DNA from: a virus
Lineage: Duplodnaviria; Caudoviricetes
Length of the DNA stretch: 26,690 nt
Strand: one strand, 5' to 3'
Virus record (IMG/VR): IMGVR_UViG_3300049187_000061
Span: 1 to 26,690 of that record
Part shown: positions 7,928 to 26,690 of the stretch, piece after piece
How the letters are laid out: every line of letters begins with the position of its first letter
Position numbering within the stretch: position 1 is the first letter of the stretch
Position numbers and translations under genes: made by a program
Notes under the pieces: model-generated
Database searches by the model: none
What the model was told of the DNA's origin: nothing
Seen by the model: only the letters and a program-made list of their open reading frames with translations

Positions 7928-9064
7928 GTGAACCCTGTGAATCCTCCCGCCCCTCAGGCGGTGTATGTGTCGCGGGTCAACGGACAGGCATTCGAATCCC
8001 AGGAAGCCTTGCAGGCGCACTATGCGCAATGCAAGTACCTTCCCGAGGGGGCGATCGTCCTGTACCCGGAGTTTCAGAGCTACATCCCCGCTCCTCCCGC
8101 AAGGAAAGAGGATCTGCGGGCAACGTACTCTCGGAACGACGAGATCACGGTCAATTCCTGGCTGCCGGAGTGGCGCGGAAACAAGAAAGCCAACTGGCAG
8201 GCTTTTGACGTTCCCGGTAATTCGGTCCTGACCCAGCATGCGAAATGGGCCTACAAGCCCGTGATCATCGCCGGAGCGGGACCGTCTCTCAAGCGGAACG
8301 CGCATCACCTGTTGAAGCGTGGGGGCATGGGGCTTGTTTCCTGCCTCCACAACTTCGGCTTTTTCCATGACCTTGGAGTCAAGCCCGACTACTACCTGAA
8401 CCTTGACGCGGGAGACATCACGATCCCGGAGATGGCACAGGGTGGGAAGCGGGACGAGGAGTACTACTGGGAGGCATCCAAGGATTACACCCTGGTCACC
8501 GCCCTCCATTGCAATCCGAAGCTCCACAAGAAGTGGAAGGGCAAGATCCTTTGGTACGACACCTACCTCCAGGGGCTGAACGAGGCCCTGGAGGCTGAGT
8601 GTCCAGGGATCTCGGACTTCCGCATGTACTTCCAGACCGGCGGGAATACCCTCGGCGCCTGTCACTACATGGCCAAGGCCATTCTCGGGGCGTCTCCGCT
8701 GGTCTTTGTCGGGGCGGACTTCAGCTTCTCCTACGATAAGAAATTCCACCCCTTCGACACCCCCTACGACAAGCAGTTTGCGGGCGTGGTCCCCTGCCAT
8801 GACGTTTTCGGGAACAAGGTGGCGACTTGGCCGAGCTATTTCGGGTTCAAGGCGTGGTTCGAATGCCAGGCCCTCGGCGGCCAGGGGAATACGCCCGGCA
8901 CCTACATCAACTGCACCGAGGGCGGAATCCTGGGAGCCTATGCGGACGGCAATATCATGCAGATTGCCCAACGCAAGCTCTTGGATGTCATAACCGAATA
9001 CACCCTGCATGAGATGCTACCCGGCCTGGTCGCGGATAAATCCCGCATCATGCTGCTGTACTAG
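7928..9064 (+). CDS. Maf/DUF115 (MptE-like) family protein, putative CMP-nonulosonate glycosyltransferase
   Basis: PVIIAGAGPSL, GVKPDYYLNLDA, GGNT..A...A..ILGASPLVFVGADFSF and YINCTEGG motifs characteristic of motility-associated factor/DUF115 proteins. Confidence 0.8.
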   Translation: MNPVNPPAPQAVYVSRVNGQAFESQEALQAHYAQCKYLPEGAIVLYPEFQSYIPAPPARKEDLRATYSRNDEITVNSWLPEWRGNKKANWQAFDVPGNSVLTQHAKWAYKPVIIAGAGPSLKRNAHHLLKRGGMGLVSCLHNFGFFHDLGVKPDYYLNLDAGDITIPEMAQGGKRDEEYYWEASKDYTLVTALHCNPKLHKKWKGKILWYDTYLQGLNEALEAECPGISDFRMYFQTGGNTLGACHYMAKAILGASPLVFVGADFSFSYDKKFHPFDTPYDKQFAGVVPCHDVFGNKVATWPSYFGFKAWFECQALGGQGNTPGTYINCTEGGILGAYADGNIMQIAQRKLLDVITEYTLHEMLPGLVADKSRIMLLY

Positions 9065-25700: not shown

Positions 25701-25723
25701 CGAAATTAGAGCTTCTTGCGGTT

Positions 25724-25755
25724 AGTATACGAAATTTGATCAAATTCGGTATACT
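25724..25755. promoter_or_regulatory. 32-bp AT-rich imperfect palindrome, candidate operator
   Basis: AGTATAC-GA-AATTTGATCAAATT-CG-GTATACT, upstream of an HTH gene. Confidence 0.6.
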
Positions 25756-25794
25756 GCCTACACAAATCGCCTCTTGTACGTATATTGAGTCAAG

Positions 25795-26217
25795 ATGTCG
25801 GCTCAAGCGGAACTCGGGAAACGTGAAATTGCGCAGGGGTTGCGGCGCGAAGCTCAAAAACTGCTCGTTCAGGCCAAAGAGCTGGAGTCAAAGGCCGCTT
25901 CACTTTTCCAGTCCGCCGCCATCCTGGATGGCCATGAGGTCCAGCTCAATTTACCCCTCGACCCGGCGCCCATCGCCGACGGCGGGCCACCCCCGCCGCG
26001 AGCCCCGAAGGGTACGCGCCGTTCCCAGGTGAGGGGCCTGATTCTGCTTGCCGGCCCGCTCTCGCGCGCGCAAATCCGGGAGCAGACCGGTATCCCCAAA
26101 GGTACCCTGGATCACCTGCTGAATGAGAAAAACGGATTCCTCCCGATGCCGGACGGCCGGTGGGATCTGATGCCGGACAAGGCCAATGAAACCGCGGAGG
26201 ATGTTCTAGGGATATAA
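25795..26217 (+). CDS. Coiled-coil plus C-terminal winged-HTH DNA-binding protein
   Basis: N-terminal heptads, Pro linker, GPLSRAQIREQTGIPKGTLDHLL...DGRWDL wHTH pattern; TATATT 8 nt before ATG. Confidence 0.7.
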   Translation: MSAQAELGKREIAQGLRREAQKLLVQAKELESKAASLFQSAAILDGHEVQLNLPLDPAPIADGGPPPPRAPKGTRRSQVRGLILLAGPLSRAQIREQTGIPKGTLDHLLNEKNGFLPMPDGRWDLMPDKANETAEDVLGI

Positions 26218-26220
26218 AAG

Positions 26221-26252
26221 AGAAAACCCACCCGGATAGGGGTGGGTTTCTC
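26221..26252. terminator. Intrinsic terminator, possibly bidirectional
   Basis: AAACCCACCC-ggatag-GGGTGGGTTT 10-bp stem immediately after the HTH gene stop. Confidence 0.7.
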
Positions 26253-26258
26253 GAAGGT

Positions 26259-26332
26259 GGGCCGTTAGGTTAACTGGTAAACCAGGTGTCCTCCCCAGGC
26301 GCCAAATGTCGGTCCGAACCCGACACGGTCCA
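26259..26332 (+). tRNA. Atypical tRNA-like gene: CCC anticodon, Ala-type acceptor stem
   Basis: Acceptor GGGCCGT/ACGGTCC-A; D arm GGTT-AACTGGTA-AACC; 6-bp anticodon stem GGTGTC/GGCGCC with loop CTCCCCA; T arm GTCGG-TCCGAAC-CCGAC; followed by CCT. Confidence 0.7.
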
Positions 26333-26446
26333 CCTTTAAACAATACTCGATTCCAACGAATCCGGCAATACAAAGGATGGTGATTATGCTAAATGCCATG
26401 CCGCCCCTCGCGTAGGCGCGTGAGTTCGGCGGGATACAAATAAGAC

Positions 26447-26490
26447 GGCCCCCGGTAGATTTATGCCTTGCGAGCGGTCTACCGGGGGCC
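26447..26490. other. 13-bp perfect hairpin between the two tRNA-like genes
   Basis: GGCCCCCGGTAGA...TCTACCGGGGGCC plus two G.U pairs on the plus strand. Confidence 0.75.
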
Positions 26491-26517
26491 CAGCCTGTTA
26501 CAGCCCGAGAAGTGTTC

Positions 26518-26585
26518 GGGGGTAGCTTGGTGCAGGCGAGGGCTCTAGATCCGTCCGCCCGGCGGTTCGAATCCGCCTACCTCCA
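26518..26585 (+). tRNA. Atypical compact tRNA-like gene: CUA (amber) anticodon, Ala-type acceptor stem
   Basis: Acceptor GGGGGTA/TACCTCC-A; D arm GCTT-GGTGC-AGGC with no connector; bulged anticodon stem GAGGG/TCCGTC with loop CTCTAGA; canonical T arm GGCGG-TTCGAAT-CCGCC; followed by GCA. Confidence 0.65.
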
Positions 26586-26690
26586 GCACTTTTCGTATCC
26601 AACAATTTATCCGATTTCGCTCCAGATTGCAACGCTCCAAATCCACGCCATTAAAACCCGCCTCCCGGGGAGGTCTAGGGGGTGGGGGTC

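Follow-up and report, generated by a model that had tools for sequence, protein, structure and literature searches.

What an RNA with an amber anticodon could be doing at the end of a phage genome is the question raised by this locus. The window, by which we mean the whole 26,690-nt stretch of DNA that was analysed, is a 26.7-kb linear virus record from soil metagenomes (~74% complete, ~61% G+C) that encodes the packaging machinery and virion of a tailed phage, with terminase, a P22-like portal and capsid. A cluster of RNA elements lies at its right end, in the order hairpin, tRNA, two hairpins and compact RNA (Table 1), and the window ends 105 nt after the compact RNA. Since contigs from two further soil runs cover positions 26530–26680 and 26508–26658 with zero differing letters, the compact RNA is not an assembly artefact. 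A first-pass annotation had given it a tRNA-like shape, an acceptor/T half of alanine type and an amber triplet, a description borne out by the sequence and by the relatives reported below. What it had read off the letters was also recovered: a length of 68 nt, zero nucleotides between the acceptor and D stems, the CU-CUA-GA loop (26543–26549), A73 and an 11-bp flanking stem.

Table 1. Coordinates of the compact RNA, its parts and the neighbouring features in the window.
Feature	Position	Strand	Details
140-aa gene	25795..26217	+	Predicted coiled coil and C-terminal helix-turn-helix; directly upstream of the RNA cluster
Strong hairpin	26219..26252		Separates the upstream gene from the RNA cluster; resembles a terminator on the minus strand
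Partner tRNA	26259..26332	+	ARAGORN call Gly(CCC); alanine-type body with G3:U70, G2-C71 and A73
Two unexplained hairpins	26400..26492	+	26401-26432 and 26447-26490 (15 bp); between both tRNA-like genes
Flanking stem	26506..26595	+	Leader 26506-26516 with A73/trailer 26585-26595; 11 bp, two G-U pairs, C26517 bulged
Compact tRNA-shaped RNA	26518..26585	+	68 nt, G26518 to discriminator A73
Acceptor, 5' strand	26518..26524	+	7 bp with 26578-26584: G1-C72, G2-C71, G3:U70, G4-C69
Minimal D hairpin	26525..26533	+	2 bp, 5-nt loop with GG (G18/G19 equivalents); zero connector to the acceptor
Long interrupted anticodon arm	26534..26560	+	Outer helix 26535-26538/26556-26559; 1x3 internal loop 26539/26553-26555
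Anticodon arm, inner part	26540-26542/26550-26552	+	Inner stem, then 7-nt loop
CUA triplet at the anticodon position	26545..26547	+	Would read UAG; flanked by C32, U33, G37 and A38
T arm, canonical	26561..26577	+	5 bp, UUCGAAU loop

Fold of the compact RNA and its surroundings

The compact RNA was missed by ARAGORN at default settings and by Rfam at gathering score, and relaxed ARAGORN runs on the window returned noise. CCA is not encoded; A73 is followed by GCA. The 90-mer at 26506–26595 folded with a z of -3.68 against shuffles, and the RNA scored 78.5 bits with our family covariance model R2, in whose training set it was included. Single-sequence folding left the D stem undecided, with pair probabilities of about 0.46 vs 0.40 for the two candidate structures. 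The fold was read from covariation among the 38 family members that share the window's spacing and align without gaps. The first-pass model of a 4-bp D stem, a 5-bp bulged anticodon stem and a 5-nt variable loop was contradicted by this alignment: the 4-bp D stem was paired in 44.7% of cells, with pair 22:37 in 12/38, whereas an alternative was paired in 90.8% at D pairs 8:16 and 9:15 (retained in 35/38 and 34/38, with G12 invariant) and in 83.2% across the arm that joins 17–21 with 39–43. Compensatory changes were observed at all seven alternative pairs, i.e., both in the D stem and all five in the outer arm, although the family pair 17:43 at the junction is an A-C mismatch in the window RNA. 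Over the whole alternative fold, 95% of cells were paired and the covariation was 0.528, vs 0.133 in shuffled and about 0.1 in slid alignments. RNAalifold, unaided, returned the same structure.

The fold of the 38 members hence comprises a 7-bp acceptor, zero connector, a 2-bp D hairpin with GG, an arm of 5 bp, a 1x3 loop and 3 bp, 0–1 variable nucleotides and a T arm, so that the compact RNA is a four-way junction without linkers. A long hairpin in place of the cloverleaf had been listed beforehand as an outcome that would refute the first-pass reading. The hairpin is what covariation supports, and CUA still sits in its 7-nt tip loop. Across the family, the lengths of the 5' and 3' arms of the core were anticorrelated (rho -0.45), which was not imposed by the search pattern, and the D pairs and arm added up to 11–13 layers in 169 of the 180 parsed members, a range partly bounded by the pattern; for D-stem vs outer-helix length the correlation was rho -0.14 (p 0.06). 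By the rule of 12-layer compensation that Steinberg and Cedergren reportedly formulated for the L shape of tRNAs, the compact RNA, with its short D stem and long arm stacked to ~12 layers, would have a normal elbow-to-anticodon distance.

The flanking stem appears to be a property of the window copy. A stem of at least 9 bp was found in 5/187 members vs 0.22 in shuffles, and one of at least 6 bp in 9/187 vs 3.7 +/- 1.8; it is missing from most members and was rejected as a family trait. Leader hairpins can slow RNase P in designed constructs (PMC8925977), and by analogy the stem would slow 5' and 3' maturation of the window copy, for which a damping role is plausible. The maturation gating that the first-pass annotation had proposed is thus possible for this copy and is no family mechanism.

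As to the surroundings, no promoter was evident directly upstream of the compact RNA in the window, and the hairpins between the two tRNA-like genes had no Rfam match. The product of the 140-aa gene matched neither Pfam nor PHROG; it has two other close relatives, and the Atlas gave a structural lead to IclR/MarR-type helix-turn-helix proteins with a TM under 0.5. Upstream of this gene, a palindrome (25720–25765) beside a weak sigma70-like site (25759–25786) is a candidate operator. Within the virion gene block we also noted an MptE-like (PF01973) gene at 7928–9064, which is retained in the related phage L398 (52% identity; L numbers denote loci).

The family, its alanine acceptor and its anticodons

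A first pattern for compact amber RNAs retrieved four viral contigs with three distinct RNAs. An anticodon-free pattern, with a chance expectation of 0.17 in 596 Gb, retrieved 27 stretches from viruses, 90 from 185,579 species genomes and at least 119 from metagenomes (about 220 estimated). Together these gave at least 193 distinct RNAs; leaving out four with broken or mis-registered stems and the non-member L219 resulted in at least 188 members, of which those listed comprise 94 from metagenomes, 79 from genomes and 14 from viruses, plus the window. Most are 67–70 nt long. Because the pattern imposed G3:U70, A73, Y32-U33, the 7-nt loop and the inner stem, these cannot be counted as conserved. 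The 80 genome titles listed included Proteobacteria, Acidobacteria, Actinomycetota, Chloroflexota, Verrucomicrobiota, Planctomycetota, Bacteroidota and others, with archaea at 0/80. When 34 candidates were scored per genome, each of five carriers had a single copy, and the family proved rare (0/150 other Verrucomicrobiota and 3/150 other Acidobacteriaceae). A covariance model R1 with only 8 pairs was set aside and R2 used.

The family was not matched by any Rfam family at gathering score, BLAST against annotated plasmids and phages gave short T-arm matches only, and a literature search, mostly of papers outside subscription, found no description of it. ARAGORN called 26 of the 188 listed members and labelled five amber members 'tRNA-Pyl' by the anticodon alone, so that claims of pyrrolysine or recoding drawn from such labels can be false. 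Overall, the window RNA is an amber-anticodon member of a compact alanine-identity tRNA family of phages and insertion sequences.

The acceptor of the window RNA differs by one pair from that of E. coli tRNA-Ala. When compared with a table of bacterial alanine identity elements, it carries A73, G2-C71, G3:U70 and G4-C69, and G20 is not placeable (PMC9976931). An acceptor-free scan, for which the anticodon arm and T loop were the sole anchors, returned 25 stretches, including 10 distinct compact RNAs with an intact acceptor; G3:U70 together with A73 occurred in 8/10 and G3-C70 in 2/10. The same bases were present in RNAs found by adjacency (the upstream copy of L139, the partner in L209 and the window tRNA at 26259), and three members found by the family model in other genomes had both features, which the model rewards. 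The window RNA departs from canonical tRNA-Ala in being without an NGC anticodon, a U8-A9 connector, a 4-bp D stem and a 5-bp anticodon stem. Separately, many phage tRNA-Ala(UGC) genes without the U8-A9 connector and with reshaped D arms were observed (L013, L021, L034, L036, L081, L106, L110, L113 and L120); these may be forms that link ordinary tRNA-Ala to the compact family.

The family carries over 30 anticodons (38 among the at least 193 raw matches). Among the 188 listed members, stop anticodons formed the largest class with 39 (CUA 27, UUA 8, UCA 4), and the sense anticodons included Gly (30), Glu (24), Arg (17), Ser (13), Gln (10), Cys (9), Ala (8) and Tyr (8); Lys (UUU) and Met were each seen once, and Trp, Phe and Asn not at all. 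CUA was found 27 times vs 7.5 expected from position frequencies (3.6 times), and CUC, CCC, CCA and CUU had a count of 0 vs about 20; neither value was reached in 10,000 permutations, a test that relatedness inflates. CUA occurs in 22–23 separate scaffold clusters, and C34 is almost confined to amber (27/42), sense triplets having mostly U34. A38 was present in 180/189, which the pattern did not impose, and C37 in 88/189; by textbook rules, C37 is poor for decoding. The triplet bias is what selection on codon reading would give, with the relatedness of members as a caveat. Triplet turnover between close relatives ran at about the same pace as that of other unpaired bases, as drift would give. 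These counts describe one sub-family, since the pattern forced the loop and stems, and looser compact relatives with 8-nt loops do carry CUC and CCC (L066, L093). L066, L093 and L114 are compact alanine-acceptor RNAs with 8-nt anticodon loops and may be frameshift suppressors. The correlation between target amino acid and tolerance of Ala was weak (rho 0.47, p 0.04 raw; rho 0.31, p 0.19 per codon) and was set aside.

The partner tRNA has a phage tRNA-Ala-like D arm in which CCC replaces the Ala triplet, a 6-bp anticodon stem and C37; the bacterial Gly identity set is missing, and its leader pairs with its A73 and trailer over 6 bp. Its D-arm/acceptor pattern gave 18 viral matches, 16 of which were read by eye as Ala UGC/CGC (L402 was not; L400 is CGC). 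Alanine bodies with foreign anticodons were seen elsewhere as well, in the partner of L209 (UUA) and in L372/L379 (UUG).

Mobile DNA around the RNA and the search for targets

IS1-like or IS1595 transposases were found in 59/188 listed loci and in 43/99 of those with at least 1 kb on each side. They lie up- or downstream of the RNA, on either strand and often 20–400 nt away, and the RNA is often placed between a cargo gene and the transposase. Terminal inverted repeats enclosed RNA and transposase in 13/23 long loci vs 1/23 of the shuffled control, which makes the RNA of these relatives a passenger. Neither a transposase nor terminal inverted repeats were found in the window, where 105 nt follow the RNA. 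Descriptions of IS1595-type transporter elements in ISfinder/TnPedia are said to mention tRNA-like sequences. Ten loci (L161, L168, L174, L182, L198, L211, L214, L217, L220 and L229) are IS1-like/IS1595 transporter elements of 1.9–3.3 kb with the RNA and uncharacterised genes as cargo, and a 100–125-aa protein without a Pfam match recurs near 13 loci.

Some phage members lie near integrase genes, and a sigma70-type promoter was detected 10 nt before some of them (7/187 vs 1/364 control windows). In L001/L135, L003/L143, L002/L139, L155 and L262 we observed a phage early operon that consists of a promoter, the compact RNA and a conserved 213–228-aa SprT-like HExxH protein. Another ARAGORN tRNA within 200 nt was present for 27/171 members vs 2/241 control windows, 3 of the 27 being ordinary tRNA arrays, and several of these neighbouring tRNAs are irregular. 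Tandem compact pairs with different or equal anticodons occur in L139 (2501–2648, UAA then CUA), L158, L353 and L208.

A target within the carrying element was sought in several ways. None of the 11 transposases adjacent to amber members contained an in-frame TAG, so transposase read-through was rejected. A codon cipher was likewise rejected, with 0/117 matched codons at Ala-rich columns vs 2.2 shuffled. In the window, 2/6 TAG stops share the frame of the gene that follows, as chance gives, and read-through fusions were rejected, since the scaffold-TAG-capsid frame is not kept in the sole related phage L398; there the scaffold TAG precedes the capsid start by 8 nt, is out of frame and overlaps a ribosome-binding motif, and TAA closes the other junction. 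Pfam scans of 21, 90 and 106 neighbour proteins (the 106 from 142 candidates) revealed no recurring partner toxin or synthetase. The carrying element can thus be decoded without the RNA, and this suggests that the RNA acts in trans.

Candidate functions and known systems

The leading reading, to which we give an even chance from sequence evidence, is that the window RNA acts on host translation by suppressing amber weakly, with alanine inserted; suppressor and mimic, the two roles named by the first-pass annotation, are still the live candidates. Host RNases would trim the RNA and host enzymes would add CCA; the host alanyl-tRNA synthetase would charge it via G3:U70/A73, leaving the anticodon unread, and the charged RNA would deliver alanine to some of the UAG stops in host mRNAs. 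Together with the partner tRNA, whose alanine body bears a Gly anticodon, it would make up a mistranslation cassette of two RNAs directed at the host proteome, not at the element's own genes, and the flanking stem and weak G31-U39/G37 loop may keep its activity low. This reading builds on the fold, the identity bases, the family, the mobile context and the non-random anticodons; transcription, processing, charging and decoding are its predicted steps. GGG occurs 173 times in the genes of the phage itself; the phage would hence suffer if Gly were strongly misread as Ala, and misreading must be slight or timed. The benefit to the phage is the weakest link, no beneficiary having been found in the targets examined. 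There is precedent in G3:U70 allo-tRNAs, which suppress amber with Ala in E. coli (PMC5389517; PMC7609411), and in tRNA-ProX, which mistranslate (PMC10404621). On the other side, several of the irregular tRNAs that Mukai et al. tested proved inactive, or were charged without being used (PMC5389517).

A non-decoding mimic, whether charged or not and with alanine never delivered, would instead bind and soak up a tRNA-attacking toxin or defence nuclease, or tie up AlaRS/EF-Tu; we regard this as unlikely but worth serious thought. The mobile and phage context, C37, the odd core and scattered PemK, HicB and AbiEii-type matches near members are consistent with it, as are charged-but-unused irregular tRNAs near toxin-antitoxin genes (PMC5389517). 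However, the stop anticodons copy no host tRNA and no toxin family recurs among the 217 neighbouring proteins scanned. Lys UUU is the commonest target of tRNA nucleases, yet it was seen only once in the family. The position of the RNA between cargo gene and transposase, the fast anticodon turnover and the encoding of CCA in only 49/189 members could also be expected of a processing or insulating signal, where RNase P and RNase Z cuts would separate or stabilise element transcripts and the triplet would be neutral. We hold this to be improbable: transposases occur on either side and strand, cleavage would not require G3:U70, and the triplet-level bias and A38 conservation argue against neutrality.

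The best Rfam match of the window RNA is tmRNA (RF00023; 26.2 bits, E 1.6e-8), along the acceptor and T arm, and the RNA could be the tRNA-like domain of tmRNA reduced to a minimum, which would bind SmpB and either enter stalled ribosomes or compete with the tmRNA of the host. G7-C66, a tmRNA-like end, is present in 110/189 members, and U8-A9 is absent. The match is nevertheless under the gathering score of 47, the mRNA domain is missing, the RNA has a D stem that covaries and an anticodon-type loop of 7 nt, and a separate phage class with a tmRNA-type D loop and a 3-nt connector looks different, all of which make this explanation very unlikely. Resemblance of the 3' half to tmRNA/tRNA-Ala ends, the nearby contig end and the integrase genes near some phage members would fit an attachment-site remnant or a decayed, functionless tRNA/tmRNA end as well. 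That reading, already largely refuted by covariation, is hardly tenable, given that in the 188 listed members neither acceptor strand is broken and each of the four helices is preserved, with compensatory changes, at the low chance expectation quoted above.

Least credible of all is a tRNA-Pyl charged by a host pyrrolysyl-tRNA synthetase. The CUA, G1-C72, missing connector, small D loop and broken anticodon stem do recall Methanomethylophilus tRNA-Pyl (PMC7609411), and the first-pass annotation had proposed a Pyl-like core, for which covariation substitutes the long hairpin. It had further set the A73 of the window against G73 in tRNA-Pyl. The A73 stands, but the G73 rule has a published exception, the A73 of the HMET1-type pair, and so A73 alone is not the decisive difference (PMC9071458). 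Against the Pyl link, the same scaffold carries over 30 anticodons, with 161/188 listed relatives other than amber, and PylRS was not found: the suggested pylS search gave nothing over the cut-off in the 74%-complete window nor in 10/10 amber-carrying genomes, themselves incomplete, while a control gave a Methanosarcina-type signal in 1/14. In addition, the 3-nt variable loop and 6-bp stem are lacking, the GG and UUC loops are kept, and archaea are absent from the genome titles listed.

Should the suppressor reading extend to the family, phages and insertion sequences may carry an undescribed tRNA class, with a tmRNA-derived alanine acceptor, a 2-bp D stem and a swappable anticodon, that rewrites host decoding in trans without an enzyme of its own; we put this forward tentatively and with more doubt than conviction. 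If true, UAG would be read through and Gly, Glu, Arg and Ser replaced by Ala, a transposable natural 'alanine scan' of the proteome, and programmed mistranslation and stop suppression would be cargo of the smallest mobile elements in many phyla. The fold, a perfect four-way junction with a 2-bp D stem and an 8-bp broken anticodon arm, would then be new to bacterial tRNAs and would probe how far the tRNA L shape can be rebuilt and yet decode. At 68 nt, free of any synthetase and with 30-odd anticodon variants found in nature, such an amber suppressor would also offer code engineering a ready chassis. Cultured carriers exist, namely Marivivens marinus (L211) and a Nitratireductor (L183), which makes the question directly testable.

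Among known systems, the compact family shares with the allo-tRNAs and polycistronic irregular tRNAs an identity uncoupled from the anticodon (Mukai et al., 2017; PMC5389517). Some of these tRNAs have G3:U70 and insert Ala at amber, 35 anticodons occur, and the genes come from soil metagenomes and lie near transposon and toxin-antitoxin genes. Several partners of compact members resemble its tRNA0/tRNA1 types by eye (L342, L201). In contrast, the acceptor branch of allo-tRNAs is 8/4 or 9/3 and their variable arm is long, compared with 7/5, 0–1 variable nucleotides and a 2-bp D stem in the compact RNA, and no sequence in the supplement text starts with any of six common compact-family starts (PMC5389517). 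Like tRNA-ProX, the compact RNA combines the body for one amino acid with the anticodon of another, in a setting of programmed mistranslation (Schuntermann et al., 2023; PMC10404621; PMC11415595). The tRNA-ProX have proline identity, three anticodons and an adjacent dedicated ProRS isoform and are confined to Streptomyces/Kitasatospora, whereas the compact family is alanine-type, needs no synthetase of its own, has stop anticodons and is spread over many phyla on mobile DNA; the window RNA has an alanine acceptor in place of proline identity elements, and no synthetase gene was found among the scanned neighbours.

The tRNA-like domain of tmRNA (RF00023) has the same alanine acceptor and T arm, no U8-A9 and a long helix in place of the anticodon arm, and is a possible ancestor of the compact family. 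The compact RNA differs in its short D stem, in the anticodon-type loop that caps the helix and in having 28 nt where the model has 328; ARAGORN at default settings made no tmRNA call in the window. A separate and common phage class of 62–69 nt was observed, with an alanine acceptor, an unpaired D loop ending in UCGA, a short capped helix, a 3-nt connector, a T arm and no mRNA part (L006, L010, L012, L023, L028, L031, L039, L051, L053, L054, L067, L071, L075, L077, L084 and others); these tmRNA-like RNAs are candidate SmpB decoys. With Methanomethylophilus/Methanomassiliicoccus tRNA-Pyl the window RNA shares CUA, the missing acceptor-D connector, a tiny D loop and a lengthened, broken anticodon stem, and it differs in the 2-bp D stem, the 8-bp interrupted arm, A73 with G3:U70, and the GG and UUC loops. 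Animal mitochondrial tRNA-Ser types I/III also offset a shortened D region with a longer anticodon stem and keep the L shape (PMC7609411), but the compact family belongs to bacterial mobile elements, has alanine identity and a variable anticodon, and takes the compensation further (2 + 8 bp). We therefore place the compact RNA as a structural variant of dual-identity tRNAs, one that falls outside the structural definitions of allo-tRNA, tRNA-ProX, tRNA-Pyl and tmRNA.
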